Made by a program: the position numbers and the translations under genes. A DNA stretch of 64,000 nucleotides from the IMG/VR virus record IMGVR_UViG_3300030390_001877, positions 32,001 to 96,000 of that record. One strand, written 5' to 3'. Below, piece after piece: positions 7,203 to 58,729 of this stretch. How positions within the stretch are numbered: the stretch's first letter is position 1; each line of letters begins with the position of its first letter. A model generated the notes under the pieces. The model was not told the DNA's origin. It made no database searches and saw only the letters and a list, made by a program, of their open reading frames with translations. This DNA comes from a virus.

Positions 7203-10200
7203 TTGAGTGATGACGGTTTATTTATTGGAGAACACCAGTATTGTTTAGCTAAAGAGTTTCCTGTTAAATCAGATGGAACGCAGCGTAGGTCTTGCGGTTC
7301 AAGTGACGCATTAGCTATTTATGAACATACAACTGTAGATGGTGTTACTTGGTATGATGGTACGTGTTTCTCTTGTAAACAAAAGTTTGATAGAGAAGAA
7401 GTACACTCTAGTAGTTTGTCAGGTTTTTTAGGGGTAGGAGAAGGTACTCTAGATGTAGTAGATAAAAAGGAGTTTGAAAATAAAGCTACTAAGAAGAAAA
7501 AGATTACTCGTGAAGAAGTGCAAGATCTTTGGTTGCGTACTGGAGGCAGGGAAGGTAATTCTGGTAAAGGTTATCGTGGTTTAAGTGATTGGGTGCTTAA
7601 ATTTTATGGACACAGAGTTGAGTATGATAAGCAAGGGAAGGTAAGTTCAATATATTACCCAGAGACTTCATCAGAAGATGGTAAGCTTAATGGTTATAAA
7701 TCTAGACACTTACCTAAGAAATTTGGTATAGGTAATCTAGGTAAGACAGGGGTAGTAAATCAGCTATCAGGGCAGCATAAGTTCCCTAATGGTGGGAGGT
7801 ATGCGTTAATTGCCGCTGGAGAAGAAGATAAGTGTGCTGCACAAGATATGCTACGTGAATACCAAAAGATGAAAGGACAAGAAGATTATGATCCTTATGC
7901 TGTAGTATCCCCTACAACAGGAGAACCCTCCGCAGCTAAACAATGTAGGCAACAGTATGATTGGTTTGATAAGTTTGAAGTTATAATTATTGGTATGGAT
8001 TCTGATGAAGTAGGGGAAGAAGCAGCCTTAGAGATTGCAAAAGTCTTACCAAGAGATAAAGTTAGAATAGCTAGATGGTCAGGTAAAGATCCAAACCAAA
8101 TGTTACTTGATGGTAAAAAGAAACAATTCTGGAGTGATTTCTTTGGTGCTAAGGAAGTCGTAGATAGTGGGGTATATAACGCTAATGATGACATGGTACA
8201 AGATGTAATTGATGTACTGACTACTCCTAGGATACCTTTACCTCATTTTGCTAGTAAATTAGAAGCTATGACAAAAGGATCAGGTTTGTTTACTAGGTCT
8301 ATATACTCATTAATAGGGGATACATCTGTAGGGAAGTGTCACGGAAAAGGTACAACTATTTTGATGCATGACCTTACTACTAAGAAAGTAGAAGACGTGG
8401 AGATAGGTGATCTGTTAATGGGGGATGACGGAACTAAAAGGGAAGTCAAGAAAGTACATAAAGGTTTTGATACTTTATACAATATAGAGCAATGTGATGG
8501 GGTTAATTATACTGTAAACAGTAAACATACACTATCCCTTAGAACAGGTTTTGATACTGTAATTAAAGGGTCTGACAGAAATAAAAGTAGAAGGTGTGCT
8601 GTTGATTATAAAAAAGGGCAAATTGTTAATATAGATGTACAAGATTATATTAAACTTCCTGCTTTAGCTAAAAGGTCTTTGAAAGGGTATAAAGGTTCTA
8701 TCCAAGAAGGCATAACTAGTAATATTAAACACCCTTGGTTATTAGGTATGTGGTTAGGTGATGGGCACACTAACCAAGCGAGAATAACTTTAGCTAAAAG
8801 TAATGTTGAGATCATAGATAAAATTGAAGATATAGTAAGAGAAGAGGATTATTACATAACTGTACCTCCTTCTTGTGATAGAGATACTACTTACACTTAT
8901 AGTATTGGTGGAGGTTTTAGAACTTATCTTACAAAACACTCTTTGATAGGGTTTAAGCATATCCCTAAAGATTTACTTTTAGGTAGCAGAGAAGAAAGAT
9001 TGCAACTTTTAGCAGGTATTATAGACTCAGATGGGTATCTAAATAGTAATGGTTGTTCTTATGAAGTTACTCAAAAAAGTAAAAAGTTAGCAGAAGATAT
9101 ACAAACTTTATGCAGGACTTTAGGTTATCGTTGTAGTATTAATTTGAGCAAAAAGTCTTCACAAAATGGTACAGTAGGTGAGTACCACAGAATGTGTATT
9201 ACAGGTGCTATTCACGAGATACCAGTAATCTTGTCTTATAAAAAGGCAAAAACTCAATCTGATTTACGTAAAGACAACAACACAGCTATAAAAGTGTCTT
9301 GTTTAGGTGGAGGAGATTATTATGGTTTTGAGGTAGACGGTAATCATCTATATTGTTTAGAAGATTTTACAGTGACACATAATAGTACGCACATAGATGC
9401 ATGGATATTCCATTGGATGTTTAATGTACCAGACCATAAAGTAGGTATTGTGAGTGTAGAAGCCACTAAAGGCGAGTGGGTTGCTGGTATGTTGTCTACT
9501 TATCTAGAAAATAACCTTTGGTGGATTCCTGTAGATGAGATAGAAAGTTATATGAATACTCCAGAAGTAAAAGCTAGAATTAATAACTTCTTTTACAATG
9601 AATATGGAGAAAGTAGGTTCGCTATTGTTGATGATAGGGAAGGAACAGTAGAGTCTTTGCAGAAATGTATAGACAAACTTGAGAGGCAGTACGGTTGTAC
9701 TATTATAGTGAATGATGTACTTACAGATATACTTCGTGTTGTAGATAATGAAGCTCAAGCAAGACATTTCAACTGGCAAAGTAATTTCGTTAAGAATGGT
9801 GCTACTATTTTCAATATATTACACACTCGTAAGTCAGGTGATAATCGAGGAGGAAAACCTACTTTCCCTAATGAGTTTGATGCCTACGGTAATTCTATCT
9901 TCGTCCAGAAAGCAGCAGGTAACTTTGTAATAGCCCGTAATAAAGAAGCACCTAACGATGATACTATTGAACAAAACACTACCTACTTGAGAGTACCTAA
10001 ACTTAGAAAAGGTGTTACTGGTAGTGGTGGTGCTTGGTATTATGACGGGGAAACTAGGAAGGTTTATGATCGAGATACCTACTTTAAGGATAATCCTGAA
10101 AAACTACCAACAGGTTATGACTTATCTATAAGCAGTTTTGATAGAGCCTATTGGGAAGAAGGTGGGCGTGGTTGGGATGGTGTTTCTGATAATAAAGGAG

Positions 10201-10280
10201 GTTTCACTAAAAAAGCGGTTAAAGTTGAAAAGGTAGAAAAAGATTGGGAAATAGATGTTGGAGATGGTACTAAATTCTAG
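7203..10280 (+). CDS. T7 gp4-like primase-helicase, intein-containing (mature ~676 aa)
   Basis: N-terminal Zn-binding Cys pairs; TOPRIM AGEED...GMDSD; helicase Walker A GDTSVGK|ST split by an intein; SF4 motifs IIVND and ILHTRK. Confidence 0.93.
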   Translation: MSDDGLFIGEHQYCLAKEFPVKSDGTQRRSCGSSDALAIYEHTTVDGVTWYDGTCFSCKQKFDREEVHSSSLSGFLGVGEGTLDVVDKKEFENKATKKKKITREEVQDLWLRTGGREGNSGKGYRGLSDWVLKFYGHRVEYDKQGKVSSIYYPETSSEDGKLNGYKSRHLPKKFGIGNLGKTGVVNQLSGQHKFPNGGRYALIAAGEEDKCAAQDMLREYQKMKGQEDYDPYAVVSPTTGEPSAAKQCRQQYDWFDKFEVIIIGMDSDEVGEEAALEIAKVLPRDKVRIARWSGKDPNQMLLDGKKKQFWSDFFGAKEVVDSGVYNANDDMVQDVIDVLTTPRIPLPHFASKLEAMTKGSGLFTRSIYSLIGDTSVGKCHGKGTTILMHDLTTKKVEDVEIGDLLMGDDGTKREVKKVHKGFDTLYNIEQCDGVNYTVNSKHTLSLRTGFDTVIKGSDRNKSRRCAVDYKKGQIVNIDVQDYIKLPALAKRSLKGYKGSIQEGITSNIKHPWLLGMWLGDGHTNQARITLAKSNVEIIDKIEDIVREEDYYITVPPSCDRDTTYTYSIGGGFRTYLTKHSLIGFKHIPKDLLLGSREERLQLLAGIIDSDGYLNSNGCSYEVTQKSKKLAEDIQTLCRTLGYRCSINLSKKSSQNGTVGEYHRMCITGAIHEIPVILSYKKAKTQSDLRKDNNTAIKVSCLGGGDYYGFEVDGNHLYCLEDFTVTHNSTHIDAWIFHWMFNVPDHKVGIVSVEATKGEWVAGMLSTYLENNLWWIPVDEIESYMNTPEVKARINNFFYNEYGESRFAIVDDREGTVESLQKCIDKLERQYGCTIIVNDVLTDILRVVDNEAQARHFNWQSNFVKNGATIFNILHTRKSGDNRGGKPTFPNEFDAYGNSIFVQKAAGNFVIARNKEAPNDDTIEQNTTYLRVPKLRKGVTGSGGAWYYDGETRKVYDRDTYFKDNPEKLPTGYDLSISSFDRAYWEEGGRGWDGVSDNKGGFTKKAVKVEKVEKDWEIDVGDGTKF
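8337..9383 (+). mobile_element. intein with LAGLIDADG homing endonuclease (349 aa)
   Basis: Starts C-HGKGT, ends VTHN followed by +1 Ser; block B TVNSKH; DOD blocks LLGMWLGDG and LLAGIIDSDG; block F YYGFEVDGNHLY. Confidence 0.96.
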
Positions 10281-10324: not shown

Positions 10325-12655
10325 ATGCAAGCAGAGTTTTTAAAAGATAAGAGTAAATTTACAAATAGGTTGCTGCATAGTGACGTGGAAGCTAGAGGCT
10401 TTATAGATATAGTTAATAAACCTGAAGATGTGTGGTGTTTGGTTTCAAGAGATGATGAAACTGATGAGGTATTTATATTCCACGACTACCCTGAGTACGA
10501 TAACGCAGAAGTATTCGACCAAGGAGAGAAACATATTATTCCTCCTAGAACAGGAACTCTCTTAGACGGAGTTAGGTTTTGGTATCTAGCAGGTAAGAAT
10601 GGTAGTAAGCTATCTGTGCATAACTGCTTCACCTATGATAAACCTTTAATAGAAAAGATCTGGCCTAAGTGTATTATTGATGATGATGTTTGGGTAGATA
10701 CTTTTATACAAAGTAAGATTCAATATTTTGACAGACCACAACGGAAAGGAGCTAAATCTCCTCACGGTTTGTTGAATTACTCTTTGATGGAAGGTAATAA
10801 GAAACCTGAAGTAGAAGACTTTAGTATTATGAATGCTTTTATGCTACATCGTTGTATAGTAGATACTAAGACTCAGAAGTTTGCACATAACTATCTTAAA
10901 AAAGAAAGAGATATGCTTTTGAGTAAGCTTGGTATTGACATGCAAGATGCTTATAAGATGGAGGTAGAGTATACAAAAACATGTTACGAGCAAGAACAGT
11001 ACGGAGCTAAGGTAGATGTACCACATATTAAAAAATGTATTGAATATCTTGATAAAACTACCGCAGATCTAGCAAAAGATATAACACCTAAACTCCCTCC
11101 TACTATTAAGGTAAGTGGTGGCAAAGTATCTCGTGTTGAGATGGCAGGTTTGTTTGGTTATGATACATCTGGTATGAAAGATGAGATGGAAATGGTTAAG
11201 AAAGATGGTGAAATGGTTTCCCAACCAGTTAAACCTTATTATAAACCTACCACTAATTTCCATACTATTAAAAAAGTTAATCAATATTCAGGTTTTAATA
11301 TTTCCTACGGGTACAGCCCTAAGTTTACTAAAAAGAATGACCTGACTAAATGGATTAAATCTCAACACCCCAAAGGTGACACTGCAAAAGTAAAAGAGTT
11401 ATCAGACTTCGTAAAAGAATGGGAGATTGATAAAAACATTGAAGAAACTAAACTTTTAAATAAAAACACTTGTGATTATTTTGAAGTAGAACCAGAAGAT
11501 ATAGATGTTATTGCTGGTGCTCACACTAAAATTAAGTTTGTTGAAAGCTCTTTGACCCAACATGAAGTGGTAAAAGGTTATCTGATAAAAGAAGGTATAA
11601 AATTCGCAGAAGAATGGAATCTTAAGAAGGATGGTGAAGGTCAGATCATAAAAGCTGAATTTGATACTGAAGTTAGGTATCCACCTAAAGCCAGAAGAGA
11701 TCAACAAATGGTGTTGAAGATTAAAAAGGGTGATGCATTAGTAACTTCCCCTAAGTTCGGGGAAAAAGAATATGCTCAATTAGAATCAGAAGATGGTAAG
11801 AATGTAGGTATGTACAACACTTTGGTACACCGTAGGCGTTACCTTGAGAACTACAAAGACCCAGAAAATAAAGGCTTACTTTCTTACGTAAGAGAAGATG
11901 GTAGGGTTGGTGCTGGTGTTAATAACTTCAACACTGCAACTGGGCGCGCATCACACAGAAAAATTGTAAATTTGCCTGCTGATGGTGCTGTATTTGGTAA
12001 AGAAATGCGACAATGTATTGTTGCTGATGAAGGAAAAGAGTTAGTCGGTATTGACCAAAAATCTAGCCAACTTTCTATATGCGCTTTTGTAACTAACAAT
12101 ACAGATTATTATGAGGCGGTTGCGACAGGGGTAGAATTCGAAAATGATGAAAATGGAAATCCTATTTTCCATGGTTCTAGTGCTCATTGTGTGAATTCAA
12201 GATATTTTAATTTGGTAACCAAAGAAGAATGGGCAGATGCAGTAAGAACACAAAACCCAGATTTGATACATGATATTGTACTCAGACGTAAAAAATCCAA
12301 AGGATTAAGTTTCGCTTCGTTATTTGGTTGTGGTCCTGCTAAGTTAGCTTTAATGGGTGGTTTTGAAGTATCAGAAGCTAAAACAAAACTGCAAGCCTTC
12401 TTAGATAATATGGGTTTATCTGAGGTAATAAAATTTCTAGAAGTATGTAGGGAGAAATACAAAAGAGGTAAAGGTTTTTATATACCAACAGGGTTTGGGT
12501 ATTGGGTTTATTGCGGAGGTGTACATAAATCAACCAACTACCTGATCCAGTCGCTAGAAGGAGTGGTGCAAAAGAAAGCAGTTGAAATAATGAAACAGAG
12601 GTTTATAGAAAAAGGTTATTGGGGAAAAAGCGTTAATAAAATACTTGATATGCAT
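10325..12655 (+). CDS. family A DNA polymerase, exon 1 (spliced product 844 aa)
   Basis: Exo I SDVE, Exo II HN..YD, Exo III HRC.VD; motif A IDQKSSQL; motif B RKKSKGLSFASLFG; ends at the H of motif C. Confidence 0.93.
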
Positions 12656-12961
12656 AAATATTGTGCCTTCTAACCGTGAGGTTAGTCGAATAACTCCGTT
12701 AATTACTGGAAACCTTAACTAGATTTGTTAATATTATCGTGAGATAAATTTAACATGTTTGTAGAAGGTGATCAGAAGCCACACTGTTCTTACAGTAGGT
12801 TCAGAGACTATCGAAAGCGTATGTATCAATGGAAGATACTATATACAGCAAGTAGAGTAGGGTTCAAGCGAATTCGAAAATGGAGCATCTTAGTTAAGAT
12901 GATTATATAGTCCGACTCTGTTAGAAATAACAGGAGATTTAGCGAGTCTCATAAGTAGGTG
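12656..12961 (+). mobile_element. group I intron, ORF-less (306 nt), in DNA polymerase motif C
   Basis: P1 GCAU/GUGC with U.G at the 5' splice site; P7 GAGACUA/UAGUCC; terminal G at 12961; splicing restores MH|DEVLL. Confidence 0.92.
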
Positions 12962-13165
12962 GATGAAGTATTATTAGAAGTAGATAAAGGTATGGGTGTT
13001 GAGGTAGGCAAAATCGCTTGTGAAGCTTACACTCAAGCTGGAGTGGAATTAAATAAATGGTATAAAGAAAATTTACATTTATATCCTGCAGGCGGTACAC
13101 CTAAGATTACCTGTGATTTTGCAGGAGGTTATGCTGTTGGGGTAGACTACGCAAGTTGCCATTGA
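12962..13165 (+). CDS. family A DNA polymerase, exon 2
   Basis: DEVLLEV...GVDYASCH, the typical PolA C-terminus. Confidence 0.92.
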   Translation, partial: DEVLLEVDKGMGVEVGKIACEAYTQAGVELNKWYKENLHLYPAGGTPKITCDFAGGYAVGVDYASCH

Positions 13166-13185
13166 TTTTTAATAAGGAGTATACT

Positions 13186-13992
13186 ATGAGAAAAAGAAAG
13201 TACGGAGAAGGTTACACAGCAATAGGTAATTATGGAGAATTTACAGTAATATCTTATTTGAATAAAAATGAAGTATTGATACGTTTCAATGAAACGGGTT
13301 ATGAAGTTTGGTGTGCATCTAATAATGTAGCTAAAGGTACAGTAAGAGATCCTTACTTTAAGTCTGTCTATGGGGTAGGTTATATAGGAGACACTGCAAC
13401 ATCTAATAGGGTAGGGGATAAAAATATACTTAAAACTTCTTACAATACTTGGCACGATATGCTAAGACGTTGTTACGCAAACAACGAAGGTAAAATGAAA
13501 ACATATGAGAATTGTGATGTGTGTGACGATTGGTTGTGTTATGCTACATATGAAAGGTGGTTTGATGATAACTATATTGAAGGTTTTCAGGTAGATAAAG
13601 ATTTCTTAAAATTAGGTAACAGAACATATTCTCCTGAAAATTGTGTTTTTCTTCCTAGAGAGATAAATGCTACTATAGGCTTTAAGACTAATAATACCAC
13701 CCGACAAGAGGATTACAAGGACTTACCAGTTGGAGTATCTTTTCATAAAAGAGATGAAGTATATACCGCTAGATGTTGGTGCGATGGAAAACTAAAATCT
13801 TTAGGTTACCACAAAACACCTGATTTAGCTTTTAGCTCTTATAAAAAATTCAAAGAAGATAAATTGAAAAGCTTAGCTGAGTTTTACTTTTCTGAAGGTA
13901 AGATTTGTCAAGAAGTTTACAATAATTTAAAAAATTATGTTGTATATCCAGAAGGTCATGCTTATTACCTGAAAAACTACAACATACAATAA
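13186..13992 (+). CDS. free-standing HNH (beta-beta-alpha-Me) homing endonuclease with AP2-like C-terminal domain
   Basis: W..MLRRCY; VDKD...N.TYSPENCVFLP.EIN; C-terminal GVSFHK...Y.AR...LGY; AAGGAG SD before ATG 13186. Confidence 0.85.
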   Translation: MRKRKYGEGYTAIGNYGEFTVISYLNKNEVLIRFNETGYEVWCASNNVAKGTVRDPYFKSVYGVGYIGDTATSNRVGDKNILKTSYNTWHDMLRRCYANNEGKMKTYENCDVCDDWLCYATYERWFDDNYIEGFQVDKDFLKLGNRTYSPENCVFLPREINATIGFKTNNTTRQEDYKDLPVGVSFHKRDEVYTARCWCDGKLKSLGYHKTPDLAFSSYKKFKEDKLKSLAEFYFSEGKICQEVYNNLKNYVVYPEGHAYYLKNYNIQ

Positions 13993-53532: not shown

Positions 53533-53753
53533 ATCTTCTCCTCCAAACGTTTCAAATGTTCTAAATAACTCTCTGCTCCAGAAAACCACTCTCTATCAAA
53601 AGTATATTCATCAGAAAACTCTCCTGAATAATATAACTCCCACTCAAGGGTTTTTATTCCAGAAGGATCATCTTCAAAGAATGTACCTTTTTCAATATAT
53701 TCTTCTGCCCATAATAATCCTTCCATCCAAGGTGATTTTCTCATCAATCCCAT
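53529..53753 (-). CDS. hypothetical protein
   Basis: 74 aa, coupled. Confidence 0.6.
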   Translation of the reverse strand: MGLMRKSPWMEGLLWAEEYIEKGTFFEDDPSGIKTLEWELYYSGEFSDEYTFDREWFSGAESYLEHLKRLEEKI

Positions 53754-54304
53754 CCTCTTAAACGTTTAATCTCACTCAAACTAATAGGTTTGTAATCAAT
53801 GTTCTCACACGATACACAGAAGTAACGTTGATCAATAAGAGAAGTTACAATATTACCTTTTCGATCTTCTATATCATCGCTAACCTGTTTATCATGTAAA
53901 TGCCCATGAATGCAATTCCCTCGGTAGAGTTCGTAATCTGGAACAGGTACATGTGTTAACCACAGTCCAAACTTCTTCAATACTCCGAATACATTTACAT
54001 TCTTAAATTGTAATGCATATCGTGGGAGTCCTGAATGACAATGGTTACCTAAAACTAGGTTAACTTGCTGATATTTAAGTCGATACTCTTCTAATCTCCA
54101 AAATTCCCTTGTCTTAAAGAAACTATCCCCTAGTATCCACAATGTTTTCTGACGGTTACCTTCTTCTAAAATGTTGTTGTGAATATAGTTATTGTGATCC
54201 TCGTCTGAACTAAACTGTTCTCTGAATTTATCAGAAATACCGTTGTGTCCGAAATGAGTATCCGCAATAAATGCATGCCTTTCTTCTGAAATTAAATCAC
54301 TCAT
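53744..54304 (-). CDS. calcineurin-like metallophosphoesterase
   Basis: IADTHFGH, ILGD, LGNH, TH.P, IHGHLH. Confidence 0.9.
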   Translation of the reverse strand: MSDLISEERHAFIADTHFGHNGISDKFREQFSSDEDHNNYIHNNILEEGNRQKTLWILGDSFFKTREFWRLEEYRLKYQQVNLVLGNHCHSGLPRYALQFKNVNVFGVLKKFGLWLTHVPVPDYELYRGNCIHGHLHDKQVSDDIEDRKGNIVTSLIDQRYFCVSCENIDYKPISLSEIKRLRGWD

Positions 54305-54843
54305 AAATCCTCCCTCCAAACTAATTCACCTTTCGCAATAGATTCTAACAATCCACGGAATTCATAACTTCTACATAGGCTATCTACATAAACACGGCAA
54401 TTCTCTCCACGAATATATTTCCCATCAATATACTTGTTAGCATCATCCATTGTCAAGAAAATATTATGTGTTTCCCAGCGAGGGTTCCCGTGTAGGTAGC
54501 TCCATCCTCCGTGAGGATCTATTTGTTCAAGGGTTTGGTACGCATCGTATAAATTCGTATGACACTCTAAGAAATCTTTCTTAGAAAGGCAGTATGTATT
54601 TTTAAACAAATATCTCCACTCTTCTTCATCATAATCATCTACAAATTCTTCTACGCTATCATAACCACTTTCATCACAAGAATTGTAAAGCTGATGTAAC
54701 TCTGCATATTCTTCTTCGTAACCCCAATCAACCTTCTTAGCTTGAACTAAGTATATAGGAGCTGCTGTACAAAGATTATCTTCGTGAAGAATATGATGTT
54801 TGTGTAAGCGTGTTTGTAACTTTTCATAAGACTCTTTATTCAT
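54301..54843 (-). CDS. hypothetical protein
   Basis: 180 aa; TAAPIY motif. Confidence 0.7.
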   Translation of the reverse strand: MNKESYEKLQTRLHKHHILHEDNLCTAAPIYLVQAKKVDWGYEEEYAELHQLYNSCDESGYDSVEEFVDDYDEEEWRYLFKNTYCLSKKDFLECHTNLYDAYQTLEQIDPHGGWSYLHGNPRWETHNIFLTMDDANKYIDGKYIRGENCRVYVDSLCRSYEFRGLLESIAKGELVWREDL

Positions 54844-56813: not shown

Positions 56814-58106
56814 CTAAAATTCAATCTTGTAGTGAAAGTTATCTGTGTTACCAAAAGTTTCTACCCAAGATTTCCTCATTATGCTTATTAACTCTGCTTG
56901 ATTACTCTTTTCCACAATAAAACTGTCGTGGTAACCTAGCGCAACAAAACCTTTATTCATAGAATGAACTAAAACTTTCTCACAAATATCAGAATCTAGG
57001 TTTTGAAGTATTTTGTAATTGTAACTTCCTTTACCAAAAAACTTAAGCTCCTTATTGTACTCTAAGAGTTTATCCACTACATGTTCACAGTTCATTTTTG
57101 TAATCCCTAAACCTTCTAGGAAATCTTCATCACCACTTTTAACTATATTATACAAAGCTAGTTTGGCGTTCCTATTACTAACACAATTTATAATACACAT
57201 CAAAGCTAGTTTACAGAAACCTCTTAGATTTTTCTTACCTTTAAGTAATTCGCTTAGTTCAGAATCATACATAGAGTAGGGGTCTTTGCCGCCTAAGTCC
57301 ACTCCTTGTAGCGTGCCTATGATATTAGTGTGTAAAGCTACTAAATCAACTTCTGTAACCTTATTACCGCTTATTTCTATAGTCTTTCTTAATTCTTTTC
57401 TGGCTGTCTGGAAAGATCCCACTTCATACCATCTACCACAACCAAACAAATCATCCATATAAACTCTTTTATAGAATAATTTATGCTCTTTTCCGTCTAT
57501 AGTGATTACAAACTTGTCTATAAAGTTGTTATACCTTTTAACCACCTCCCTTCTAAGCTTAACCATCTTAAACTTAGTAAGCTTTTCGTATTTATGTCTA
57601 ACTTTGTTTACTTTATAACAAACCTCTATCTCTGGTGAATCTGATCTTGGGTCTTTTGTGAGGTTTAAGATTTTATCGTCTACTAAAGATAGTAAACTTT
57701 CAGAAAATATGACTCTAGAAGATATATTAACATCCTCTTTCATATCTTTATAACCTAGGTATGTTGTAAGGAATCCATCTTCGTCTAATGTATCTACCAA
57801 TTCGCACATTCTATCTTTGTTTAACTTAAGTTTACTCTTATTAATCTTGTTAAACTTAGTGTAAGATTCCCATCTCCTAGGAAACCAAACACCTTGTTTA
57901 TTAATCTTTTTGGCTTTAGCAATACATATAGCCAACATATACATCTCATTTTCAAACTTTTTCAATGGTAGTTGTGACAGATCAGCTATAGCTCCTACAA
58001 CTTTGTTAAGGTAGTTAGCTTTGTAGGGTGTGTAATATAAATTACCTACCGTGTTTATCAGTACCCAAGACCTCTCTTCTTTCTTTAATTCCTTTAGTGT
58101 TAACAT
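56814..58106 (-). CDS. minimal family A / T7-RNAP-fold polymerase-like protein
   Basis: GRWY; motif A EVDLVALH; motif B RGFCKLALMCIIN; motif C YHDSFIV; no exonuclease domain; possible N-terminal winged helix. Confidence 0.6.
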   Translation of the reverse strand: MLTLKELKKEERSWVLINTVGNLYYTPYKANYLNKVVGAIADLSQLPLKKFENEMYMLAICIAKAKKINKQGVWFPRRWESYTKFNKINKSKLKLNKDRMCELVDTLDEDGFLTTYLGYKDMKEDVNISSRVIFSESLLSLVDDKILNLTKDPRSDSPEIEVCYKVNKVRHKYEKLTKFKMVKLRREVVKRYNNFIDKFVITIDGKEHKLFYKRVYMDDLFGCGRWYEVGSFQTARKELRKTIEISGNKVTEVDLVALHTNIIGTLQGVDLGGKDPYSMYDSELSELLKGKKNLRGFCKLALMCIINCVSNRNAKLALYNIVKSGDEDFLEGLGITKMNCEHVVDKLLEYNKELKFFGKGSYNYKILQNLDSDICEKVLVHSMNKGFVALGYHDSFIVEKSNQAELISIMRKSWVETFGNTDNFHYKIEF

Positions 58107-58260
58107 TGTTTTGTTGATCTCCGTAGTAATAACTGTAAATATCAATGTCGTTTATTTTGATGTAGTCTATACACTTTATAACATATAAAGCTACACTTAA
58201 TTTACCTCGTACCTTAGATATATGATTTAATAAAGGTTGGGGTATATGTAAATTTATCAT
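58042..58260 (-). CDS. small RHH-like DNA-binding protein (tentative)
   Basis: INLHIP strand followed by two helices; overlaps the start of the next gene. Confidence 0.35.
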   Translation of the reverse strand: MINLHIPQPLLNHISKVRGKLSVALYVIKCIDYIKINDIDIYSYYYGDQQNNVNTKGIKERREVLGTDKHGR

Positions 58261-58376
58261 AGGATTCCTTAGTAATAATATAATACTTATAAGAAGTAAG
58301 TAACCAACTCGGAAGAAATAGGTTAGACAAACCCTTACACCTCGGGACTTACAAGAGATATGACCCCCCTAATTTA

Positions 58377-58616
58377 CTATTCTGGAAAATCATCAAAATT
58401 GCTTGTTATTTCCCCTACAATAAGACCTACTTTAACTCCGAATACGTGAAGCAAAACCTCCTCTATCTTCTCTATAGAGACACCATGATCTCCTTTCAGT
58501 ATTATAGATAATTGTTTTCTGGTTATTCCTCCTGCAGAGCATATATCATTATAACTAAAACCTGACTCATCTTTCTGATCTTTCATAATTTGGGACAAAT
58601 GCTTTCTTAAGCTCAA
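58377..58616 (-). CDS. XRE-family HTH protein
   Basis: SGFSYNDIC..GGITRKQLS.IL.G....SIEKIEEVL. Confidence 0.75.
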   Translation of the reverse strand: MSLRKHLSQIMKDQKDESGFSYNDICSAGGITRKQLSIILKGDHGVSIEKIEEVLLHVFGVKVGLIVGEITSNFDDFPE

Positions 58617-58639
58617 ATTTAATCCTCCTGTAAAACTAT

Positions 58640-58668
58640 ATTATATCACATAGTATACTTATTGTAAA
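58640..58668 (-). promoter_or_regulatory. sigma70-like promoter
   Basis: TTTACA-N17-TATAAT with TGn. Confidence 0.75.
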
Positions 58669-58729
58669 CCACTTCACCCTACATTACGTATACTTGTTGC
58701 ATCTTCCTGTAGTATAAATATATCACTCC

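Follow-up and report, generated by a model that had tools for sequence, protein, structure and literature searches.

The window analyzed here is a 64,000-nucleotide stretch of DNA that spans bases 32001-96000 of the 132,129-bp virus record IMGVR_UViG_3300030390_001877, which has direct terminal repeats and belongs to a marine phage, a large lytic-type myovirus. A gene at 56814-58106 on the minus strand, here called pol, encodes a 430-residue protein that we predict with high confidence to be an active polymerase of the TV-Pol family. TV-Pols define a minimal catalytic core that is thought to have given rise to the PolA DNA polymerases (DNAPs) and the T7-type RNA polymerases (RNAPs) alike. The pol gene is the last of a three-gene cassette that begins with a helix-turn-helix (HTH) regulator gene. 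The explanation that best accommodates the data overall is that Pol is a regulated initiating (primase-type) polymerase, a reading to which we give an even chance of being right. That the job of the enzyme is priming or initiation of DNA replication we put at even or slightly below.

The longest open reading frame (ORF) at the locus, 56814..58145, has a TTG start codon. Homologs of 427-440 residues, near and distant alike, align from the ATG at 58106 and hence the gene was taken to be 56814-58106. The cassette and its features all lie on the minus strand. The original prediction described a protein of about 430 residues that carries a set of polymerase motifs, and each of these was found in pol at verified coordinates. 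The sequence GRWY (residues 224-227, 57426-57437) belongs to a β-hairpin with an invariant Gly224-Arg225 pair, present in 89 of 89 diverse homologs and 74 of 74 homologs from bacterial genomes. Motif A, EVDLVALH (residues 252-259, 57330-57353), contains the catalytic Asp254, and its His259 aligns with the steric-gate Glu of PolA. Motif B, the O-helix RGFCKLALMCIIN (residues 295-307, 57186-57224), has the arrangement Arg295-x3-Lys299 with Met303 at K+4 and Asn307 at K+8. The QNLDS sequence (Gln368, Asp371, and Ser372; 56991..57005) is in the helix that precedes motif C, which we take to be the counterpart of the PolA QGTAAD helix. Motif C itself, HDSF (residues 393-396, 56919-56930), contains the catalytic Asp394.

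Pol belongs to a large family (1839 representatives of 50%-identity clusters at E ≤ 1e-3 in an exhaustive HMMER search). In the alignment of 89 diverse homologs Gly224, Arg225, Arg240, Asp254, Tyr277, Arg295, Lys299, His393, and Asp394 are invariant and Glu252, Leu367, Gln368, and Asp371 nearly so, and the same invariant positions are kept in 71-74 of the 74 bacterial homologs. His at D+5 (the His259 position) is found in 79 of the 89 and in 56 of the 74 bacterial proteins. The Ser that follows HD is found in 80 of 89 and in all 74. The K+4 residue is Met or Leu across the family, and K+8 is occupied by Asn in 58 of the 89 proteins, by Phe in 16, and by Tyr in 14. The QxxDS residues are likewise well kept (Gln in 86, Asp in 86, and Ser in 80). 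Two Asp residues are candidates for the conserved acidic residue of the fingers: Asp371, kept in 86 of 89, and Asp275, kept in 58 of 89.

Pol belongs to phrog_4756 of PHROGs (E 9e-91), a group of "unknown function", and searches of Pfam, NCBIfam, and PDB with the single protein gave no match, as did a search of PDB with the profile of the 89-sequence family. Alignment by hhalign of the family profile with single sequences did not reach significance for T7 RNAP (E 0.33), T7 DNAP (E 0.49), or the PolA of this same phage (E 0.12). The last two gave short alignments, that with T7 DNAP falling on motif C and that with the phage PolA on motif A. Two phage homologs, those of vB_PsaM_M1 and Rheinheimera phage Barba31A (both BFVD matches), are annotated as "DNA polymerase" and automatically assigned names among the ESM Atlas neighbors include "putative DNA polymerase family A". 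No Pfam domain was found in the extensions of ten longer relatives (521-562 residues).

The AlphaFold2 model built with the 89-sequence alignment has a mean predicted local distance difference test score (pLDDT) of 96.0 and a predicted template modeling score (pTM) of 0.91. When this model was compared with PDB using Foldseek the top matches were exclusively family A DNAPs (the apicoplast polymerase, Bst, Taq, and Pol theta) with E values from 6e-6 and a probability of 1.00. VIA, a structural aligner independent of Foldseek, matched residues ~151-430 to apicoplast Pol (apPol, Z 15.0), Aquifex Pol I (14.0), Pol nu (13.9), and Klenow (13.7), the DNAPs as a whole giving Z 15.0-12.4 with root-mean-square deviations (rmsd) of 4.4-5.5 Å. 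The RNAPs gave Z 13.5 over 236 residues at 3.7 Å for the yeast mitochondrial enzyme (mtRNAP), Z 12.9 over 253 residues at 3.6 Å for the T7 enzyme, and Z 7.6 for N4 RNAP II. All of the first 21 VIA matches (Z 15.0-7.0) are family A DNAPs or T7-like RNAPs, with unrelated folds appearing from Z ~6.

In the model the catalytic core, which consists of palm and fingers, comprises residues 151-430 (56814..57656 with the stop codon), as delimited by the AlphaFold2 model and the Foldseek and VIA matches. Asp254 ends palm strand 248-255 and His393-Asp394 lie in the motif-C hairpin (390-392/395-399), so that by the topology of the predicted structure both Asp residues occupy the canonical palm positions. 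The Arg hairpin consists of strands 212-217 and 223-228, and Arg295 and Lys299 are both on helix 291-307. The region between the N-terminal domain and the Arg hairpin, where a thumb would lie, is modeled as one long helix (182-196) plus short strands. The thumb thus looks much reduced, to that single long helix. The structural matches start near residue 151 and are confined to the polymerase domains of their targets, which agrees with the proposal that Pol lacks exonuclease and RNAP accessory or promoter-specificity domains; no Pfam or NCBIfam domain is found anywhere in its 430 residues.

The N-terminal domain (residues 1-150, 57657..58106) folds with equal confidence when modeled alone (AlphaFold2 pLDDT 96.3). 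Its core, at about residues 40-145 of the model, appears to be a winged helix. The top 50 structural matches are mostly winged-helix proteins (VC1899, Zbeta, CodY, Fur/PerR, MarR, PadR, CRP, and Cdc6/ORC) at modest Z scores of 6.0-4.2, and hence the N-terminal winged helix suspected from sequence gains support at the level of the predicted fold.

The TV-Pols were defined in 2008 by Iyer, Abhiman, and Aravind as proteins in which a thumb is combined with a hairpin bearing an invariant Arg, an RRM-like palm with two Asp residues, and fingers with RxxxK and an Asp (PMC2579912). They are 400-600 residues long, have no nuclease either fused or linked, and have a thumb centered on two antiparallel helices (PMC2579912). 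Their genes are linked to that of a D5-like helicase or, in a subset having an additional N-terminal domain, to genes encoding lambda-type integrases, gamma-delta resolvases, and RNase-H-fold transposases in islands rich in restriction-modification (RM) genes. One such element was reported within Microcystis phage Ma-LMM01 (PMC2579912). Pol has the catalytic features of this family (the Arg hairpin, the two palm Asp residues, and the RxxxK helix) together with its size and its lack of a nuclease. The family profile aligned by hhalign with that of the family of the Ma-LMM01 506-residue ORF, which we assume to be the TV-Pol named in the 2008 study, with E 8e-5 and a probability of 61% over 83 columns that span the Arg hairpin, motif A, and the O-helix. 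The single-sequence comparison with that ORF gave E 0.0015. The D-x4-H motif A and the K-x7-N helix are common to the Pol family and the Ma-LMM01 protein.

The bacterial homologs point the same way. A scan of one genome per prokaryote species gave at least 193 relatives, mainly in Rhodobacterales, Rhizobiales, other Proteobacteria, and Lentisphaerae, which are approximately the taxa reported in 2008. Among the 80 loci kept from these for neighborhood counts, genes of two integrase families were found in 20 and 19, a resolvase gene in 11, and an rve transposase gene in four. The defense genes found beside pol in the TV-Pol elements of Alpha-, Gamma-, and Deltaproteobacteria and Lentisphaerae encode type III RM Mod/Res proteins, type I HsdM, and GmrSD. 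As this integrase- and resolvase-containing, restriction-rich context is that published for the TV-Pols, we file Pol as a TV-Pol of the N-terminal-domain type. The original prediction of a TV-Pol-type enzyme is thereby supported by the catalytic features and the bacterial element context, and the Ma-LMM01 profile match points in the same direction. Its companion statement, that TV-Pols were known only as bioinformatic predictions, is partly out of date. The CcPol-MP system of SCCmec contains an A-family polymerase, was placed among the TV-Pols in 2008, and has been demonstrated to prime de novo, using deoxynucleoside triphosphates (dNTPs) (PMC7581432). As of 2020 no TV-Pol other than CcPol had been characterized biochemically (PMC7581432) and a literature search for any characterized since then found none.

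The pol gene was originally thought to encode a second A-family polymerase of the phage. As described, the window also encodes a canonical PolA (10325-12673) and a primase/helicase (7203-10280). However, the record contains a further TV-Pol paralog outside the window and thus pol is the third A-superfamily polymerase gene of the phage rather than the second. The other paralog (genome C1:21551-22828, minus strand; locus L002:1495-2784) encodes 429 residues, is 27% identical to Pol over the core, and has no HTH/ribbon-helix-helix (RHH) cassette. At the positions where Pol has His, QxxDS, and HDS it has the DNAP-like states Glu at D+5, QNVGA (QxxGA), and HDD. The family is widespread in this marine myovirus group, with 81 records found for the window copy and 204 for the other paralog. 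The latter is 82% identical to its counterpart in Pseudoalteromonas phage HM1, whereas other proteins of the phage are only ~35% identical to those of HM1 or have no match, which suggests that the second paralog is a recently exchanged module. We considered whether the 34% identity to HM1 found for the window copy marks a hypervariable cassette and rejected this. HM1 has no match to the major head protein and its Dda-like helicase, too, is only 35% identical, so that an identity of 34% is ordinary for this pair of phages and it is the paralog, at 82%, that stands out. The same HM1 comparisons led us to reject the possibility that the phage is a close relative of Qingdaovirus.

It had been proposed that motifs B and C of Pol resemble those of T7 RNAP more than those of PolA. 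As strings this is true: the T7 RNAP record has RSVTKRSVM and IHDSF (Arg627, Lys631, Met635, Tyr639, and His811-Asp-Ser-Phe, with HSQDG at 784-788), whereas motif C of T7 DNAP is HDE. The proposal holds less well beyond the strings. The residue states are the norm of the family, the structural comparison of the model with DNAPs and RNAPs is a tie, and the Tyr found at K+8 in both PolA and T7 RNAP (Tyr639, which functions in selection of nucleoside triphosphates (NTPs)) is Asn307 in Pol. Similarly, at the gate position of motif A, T7 DNAP has Glu (Asp475...Glu480) and T7 RNAP has Gly (Asp537...Gly542), and the His of Pol is neither. In Pfam searches, two of the 89 family members have weak RNA_pol matches (best E 0.0046) and DNA_pol_A is not among the 25 Pfam families listed for the 89. 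PF00940 (RNA_pol) matched neither Pol nor any other part of the genome, and the control genomes also gave no match. PF00476 (DNA_pol_A) did not match Pol and in a six-frame search of the genome found only the canonical PolA. The contrasting signatures of the two paralogs hint, from their sequences, at a difference in substrate preference.

The arrangement upstream of pol is as first described: a promoter, an XRE HTH gene, a noncoding gap of about 115 nt (116 nt by our count), and an RHH-like gene. The predicted sigma-70-type promoter (58640..58668) reads TTTACA-17 nt-TATAAT with a TG and matches the consensus at 11 of 12 positions. It precedes a 79-codon XRE/Cro-C1-type HTH gene (58377..58616; PHROG 8994, E 4e-10; weak matches to Pfam HTH_26 and HTH_3), the 116-nt gap (58261..58376), and a 72-codon ORF (58042..58260; PHROG 31326, E 7e-14) that overlaps the start of pol by 65 nt in the +1 frame. 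Ten relatives having 30-45% identity were opened, these being Pseudoalteromonas phage J2-1, Vibrio phage 11895-B1, and eight metagenomic contigs. All ten keep the order of an ORF at the HTH position, a gap of ~80-170 nt, an ORF of 61-67 codons, and pol. The HTH-position ORF has 70-94 codons in nine; the tenth, L036, has ORFs of 74 and 50 codons instead. Alignment indicated that the ORFs of five relatives are orthologs of the HTH gene, three of which have weak Pfam HTH_3 matches, and a profile of the six orthologs matched SinR, C.BclI, CI, HigA, and HipB with E 1e-3 to 0.3, most of its 45 matches being XRE-type proteins. On these sequence matches the first cassette protein is assigned as an XRE/Cro-C1 HTH protein, a class having a five-helix domain of the HTH_3 type.

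Orthologs of the small ORF (61-67 residues) are present in all ten relatives and overlap pol by 35-68 nt, always in the +1 frame (L003, L005, L024, L025, L027, and L034-L037 among them). Since the ORF overlaps the start of pol, the two genes are probably translationally coupled; there is no indication of a +1 frameshift that would fuse their products. The small protein has no sequence match in Pfam, NCBIfam, or PDB. Its pattern M-L-N-[LI]-x-[LI]-P-x-P-L-L-x-x-I-D-x-x-R-G-x-x-S-R is conserved in 8-10 of the orthologs and is made up of a strand, the PLLxxI helix, and the G-x-x-S-R helix, in that order, and so the protein reads like an RHH protein. The RHH regulators (Arc/MetJ/CopG) are dimeric and have an N-terminal β-strand and then two helices with a G-x-S/T-R turn.

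The gap gave no stable RNA fold (z +1.78), no Rfam match, and no terminator. Only its length (80-170 nt) is conserved across the relatives, its sequence being unconserved, and it is probably the regulatory region or spacer of the small ORF-pol pair. It contains the palindrome CTTATAAG and a low-confidence candidate operator, the 13-mer ATAAGTATTATAT (58278..58290), of which a near-twin, ATAAGTATACTAT, lies in the promoter spacer at 58650-58662. The pattern ATAAGTATWMTAT has only these two zero-mismatch matches in the 64 kb, a circular statistic in that the pattern was derived from the two sites. In addition, two copies of AAGTATAC 35 bp apart (window 58653-58699, minus strand) form a 15-nt inverted repeat around and inside the HTH promoter, which is also surrounded by GTATAC repeats. 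The AAGTATAC 8-mer occurs 7 times in the window against an expected 3.9 and does not count as enriched. The shared 13-mer, the GTATAC repeats, and the AAGTATAC repeat are possible operators.

The cassette lies 1.5-3 kb from a divergent junction at ~60.05 kb, where a leftward early-looking operon meets rightward tail genes. It is found near such a tail-gene/early-operon junction in most of the relatives examined (L024-L028 and L034), and pol is near the head of the early operon both here and in vB_PsaM_M1. The genes downstream of pol vary among relatives. In this phage a Dda-like helicase gene lies 3.2 kb downstream of the cassette, and between the two is a 191-codon ORF (53744-54319, minus strand) in which motifs of a calcineurin-like metallophosphoesterase (HFGH, GDSFF, GNHC, and GHLH) were read by eye. 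In L025/L026 (L025:6334-11117) a UvrD-family helicase gene directly follows the cassette and a gene of the Gad2 (anti-Gabija) family is found further on. Among distant relatives, a UvsW-type helicase gene lies upstream of pol in L011/L013, and in L009 the order is integrase, small ORF, and then pol.

The conserved early cassette thus consists of the predicted promoter, the XRE-HTH gene, a gap of ~100 nt, the small RHH-like gene, and pol. We propose that Pol would start nucleic-acid chains de novo as a primase-polymerase, its winged-helix domain would pick the initiation sites, and the primers would feed the PolA/helicase replisome of the phage itself. By analogy with CopG-type repression of a plasmid Rep gene, the HTH and RHH-like proteins may hold pol expression down. 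The chain-initiation step is suggested because this activity was predicted for the TV-Pols and demonstrated for the related CcPol-MP (PMC7581432). The helicase and integrase neighbors in relatives are of a replication type and favor the proposal.

Several observations weigh against this proposal. The phage already has a DnaG-type primase/helicase and PolA, which would seem to make another primase superfluous. Pol has neither a fused helicase nor a strict link to one, and longer fused forms were not found, although this last is weak evidence. TV-Pols of this architecture are without biochemical data (PMC7581432). The RHH-like character of the small protein comes from its sequence pattern, and regulation of pol by the HTH and RHH-like proteins is likewise a proposal. 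The replicon-like unit originally envisaged, and an origin within it, gained no support. The GC minimum, 24-26%, lies in 58100-58299, but there is no marked AT-rich block, no iteron array or tandem repeat near the cassette (only short two-copy repeats), and the gap has neither stable fold, Rfam match, nor sequence conservation. Beyond an analogy of layout nothing found here supports a replicon.

The main competing explanation, that Pol is a minimal DNA-dependent RNAP akin to N4 RNAP II or a cut-down T7 RNAP, seems unlikely to us, but it accounts for several of the data. Such an enzyme would act early, making an origin transcript or transcribing a subset of phage genes from sites read by the winged helix. 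The rmsd values to T7 RNAP (3.6 Å) and mtRNAP (3.7 Å) are lower than those to the DNAPs, although the DNAP Z scores are as high or higher. HDS matches the T7 HDSF, the K+4 Met matches Met635, QxxDS resembles HSQDG, and there is no Glu at the steric gate, and these states differ from the DNAP-like Glu, QxxGA, and HDD of the other paralog of the same phage. The two weak RNA_pol matches among the 89 family members also fit this explanation. However, His, HDS, and QxxDS are normal for bacterial TV-Pols that reside in integrase/resolvase elements, where a replicase would be the more sensible enzyme, and the Tyr639 equivalent is Asn. The 280-residue core also lacks the specificity loop, the intercalating hairpin, and a T7-like N-terminal domain. 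Both here and in vB_PsaM_M1 the gene is close to the start of an early operon, beside a divergent junction, a location that would suit an early RNAP, but a k-mer survey of 80 intergenic regions found no recurrent phage-specific promoter family, the commonest motifs being TTGACA and the extended -10, both sigma-70-like. The survey argues against a general transcription role rather than a narrow one. A more novel possibility is that the His/QxxDS/HDS state, seen in Pol and in 74 bacterial elements, marks an NTP-using, site-specific RNA or primer polymerase of ~430 residues guided by its winged helix, whereas the paralog, having reverted to Glu/QxxGA/HDD, extends the products with dNTPs, the pair constituting a minimal initiation system under an HTH/RHH switch. 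This is a speculation that we think has a small chance of being correct. If true, no chain-initiating enzyme smaller than Pol would be known in the T7-RNAP/PolA superfamily.

Three other explanations were considered. The cassette might replicate a selfish TV-Pol element that has settled in the phage genome, as proposed for Ma-LMM01, and serve its own propagation. The bacterial homologs are indeed parts of integrative elements with integrases, resolvases, and transposases, and the cassette has its own promoter and regulators. However, there is no recombinase (nor a D5 helicase) within 4 kb on either side of the phage locus, terminal repeats or target duplications were not found, the cassette occupies the same tail/early junction in most relatives, and the family is widespread in this marine myovirus group; we consider this explanation improbable. 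We are similarly doubtful that Pol is an active polymerase having another job, such as bypassing lesions or filling gaps, adding tails without a template, or making a nucleic-acid product directed against host defense. Its early location among small genes without known function, the Gad2-family gene in the same gene run of L025/L026, and an Asn at K+8 of the O-helix that could relax template or substrate rules are compatible with such jobs. The strictly conserved template-contacting Arg hairpin and the minor-groove Gln argue instead for templated synthesis, and no link to a defense or antidefense gene is conserved across the relatives. Finally, the winged-helix domain and the very reduced thumb would also suit a polymerase fold that has lost catalysis and now serves as a DNA-binding regulator, but a family of 1839 cluster representatives keeps both metal-binding Asp residues, RxxxK, the Arg hairpin, and the HD dyad with little or no variation, and we give this explanation very little credence.

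A regulated initiating polymerase thus remains our preferred reading. The family is large, having not only the cluster representatives given above but also members in at least 193 species genomes and in hundreds of marine phages. This phage provides a test case in that its two paralogs differ at the three positions most tied to sugar selection, and the compact regulatory cassette at pol adds to its value. Cultured relatives exist (Pseudoalteromonas phages J2-1 and HM1 and Vibrio phage 11895-B1). A 430-residue protein able to start chains de novo would be of interest to evolutionary biologists and enzyme engineers, whereas if Pol only extends primers it would be an ordinary accessory polymerase.

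Two observations were made on the other replication genes of the window. In the region 10325-13165 (plus strand) the canonical PolA ORF ends at 12673 with ...ILDMH plus five residues and the remainder of its motif C (DEVLLEV...) is found in another frame at ~12959-13165, just before an HNH endonuclease gene (13156-13992). The PolA gene is probably split at H/DE by an intervening sequence of ~290 nt, a split that fits the introns noted in terL and the tape-measure gene. Within the primase/helicase ORF (7203-10280, plus strand; 1025 residues, phrog_239), the segment of residues ~371-729 resembles families labeled "terminase large subunit". This segment may represent an insert, either an intein or a homing endonuclease, that terminase genes also carry.

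Compared with known systems, Pol shares with the T7-like RNAPs (T7, mitochondrial, and N4 RNAP II) the palm-fingers fold, HDS, Met at K+4, and the absence of a sugar-gate Glu. However, T7 RNAP has 883 residues rather than 430, and its specificity loop, intercalating hairpin, N-terminal domain, and Tyr639 are not found in Pol. The family A DNAPs (Klenow, Bst, Taq, and apicoplast Pol) are the best structural matches, over residues ~155-430, and the motif A form D-[YF]-S-x-[LI]-x parallels DYSQIE. The steric-gate Glu, the O-helix Tyr, and HDE are the defining residues of the PolA DNAPs, and in their places Pol has His, Asn, and HDS. Pol also differs from these enzymes in having no Pfam DNA_pol_A match, no exonuclease domain, and what seems a much reduced thumb. 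For the cassette the nearest parallel is provided by the copG-repB operons of plasmids such as pMV158, in which a small RHH repressor gene is directly upstream of, and coexpressed with, the gene encoding the replication initiator. The parallel extends no further than layout: here the last gene encodes a polymerase rather than an HUH Rep, and fold, Rfam, and repeat searches of the gap and cassette found no antisense RNA or origin repeats.

The CcPol-MP and PolA-SSB primases resemble the present system in that a polymerase is paired with a small protein of the same operon. In those primases the small partner is an OB-fold protein that binds ssDNA and associates with the polymerase. In contrast to Pol, CcPol is close to canonical PolA (the CHEAP cluster, PMC10201439), retains three exonuclease helices, and lacks the TV-Pol N-terminal domain (PMC10061031, PMC10201439). 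Moreover, its partner MP is encoded downstream and has an OB fold, whereas the small gene here is upstream and its product has an RHH-type pattern that is not β-rich. In the SCCmec operon a helicase gene follows CcPol-MP; the cassette here contains no helicase gene. The closest likeness is to the N-terminal-domain subset of TV-Pols in size (400-600 residues), lack of a nuclease, the Arg hairpin, the two Asp residues, RxxxK, and bacterial homologs located by integrases, resolvases, transposases, and RM genes. Pol departs from the 2008 description in being encoded by a large lytic-type myovirus, where neither a recombinase nor a D5-like helicase gene is nearby, in being one of two diverged paralogs, and in seemingly having one long thumb helix rather than two. 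The N-terminal domain was predicted in 2008 to be all-helical (PMC2579912) whereas our model has helices plus a winged helix, and an HTH/RHH-like/pol cassette is not described in that paper (PMC2579912). The family itself was described in 2008, and annotations that treat some homologs as PolA-like already existed. To this the present analysis adds the assignment of the winged helix, the conserved cassette of three genes in which the small ORF overlaps pol in the +1 frame, two paralogs of contrasting signatures in one phage, and the link between the TV-Pols of marine phages and those of bacterial elements.

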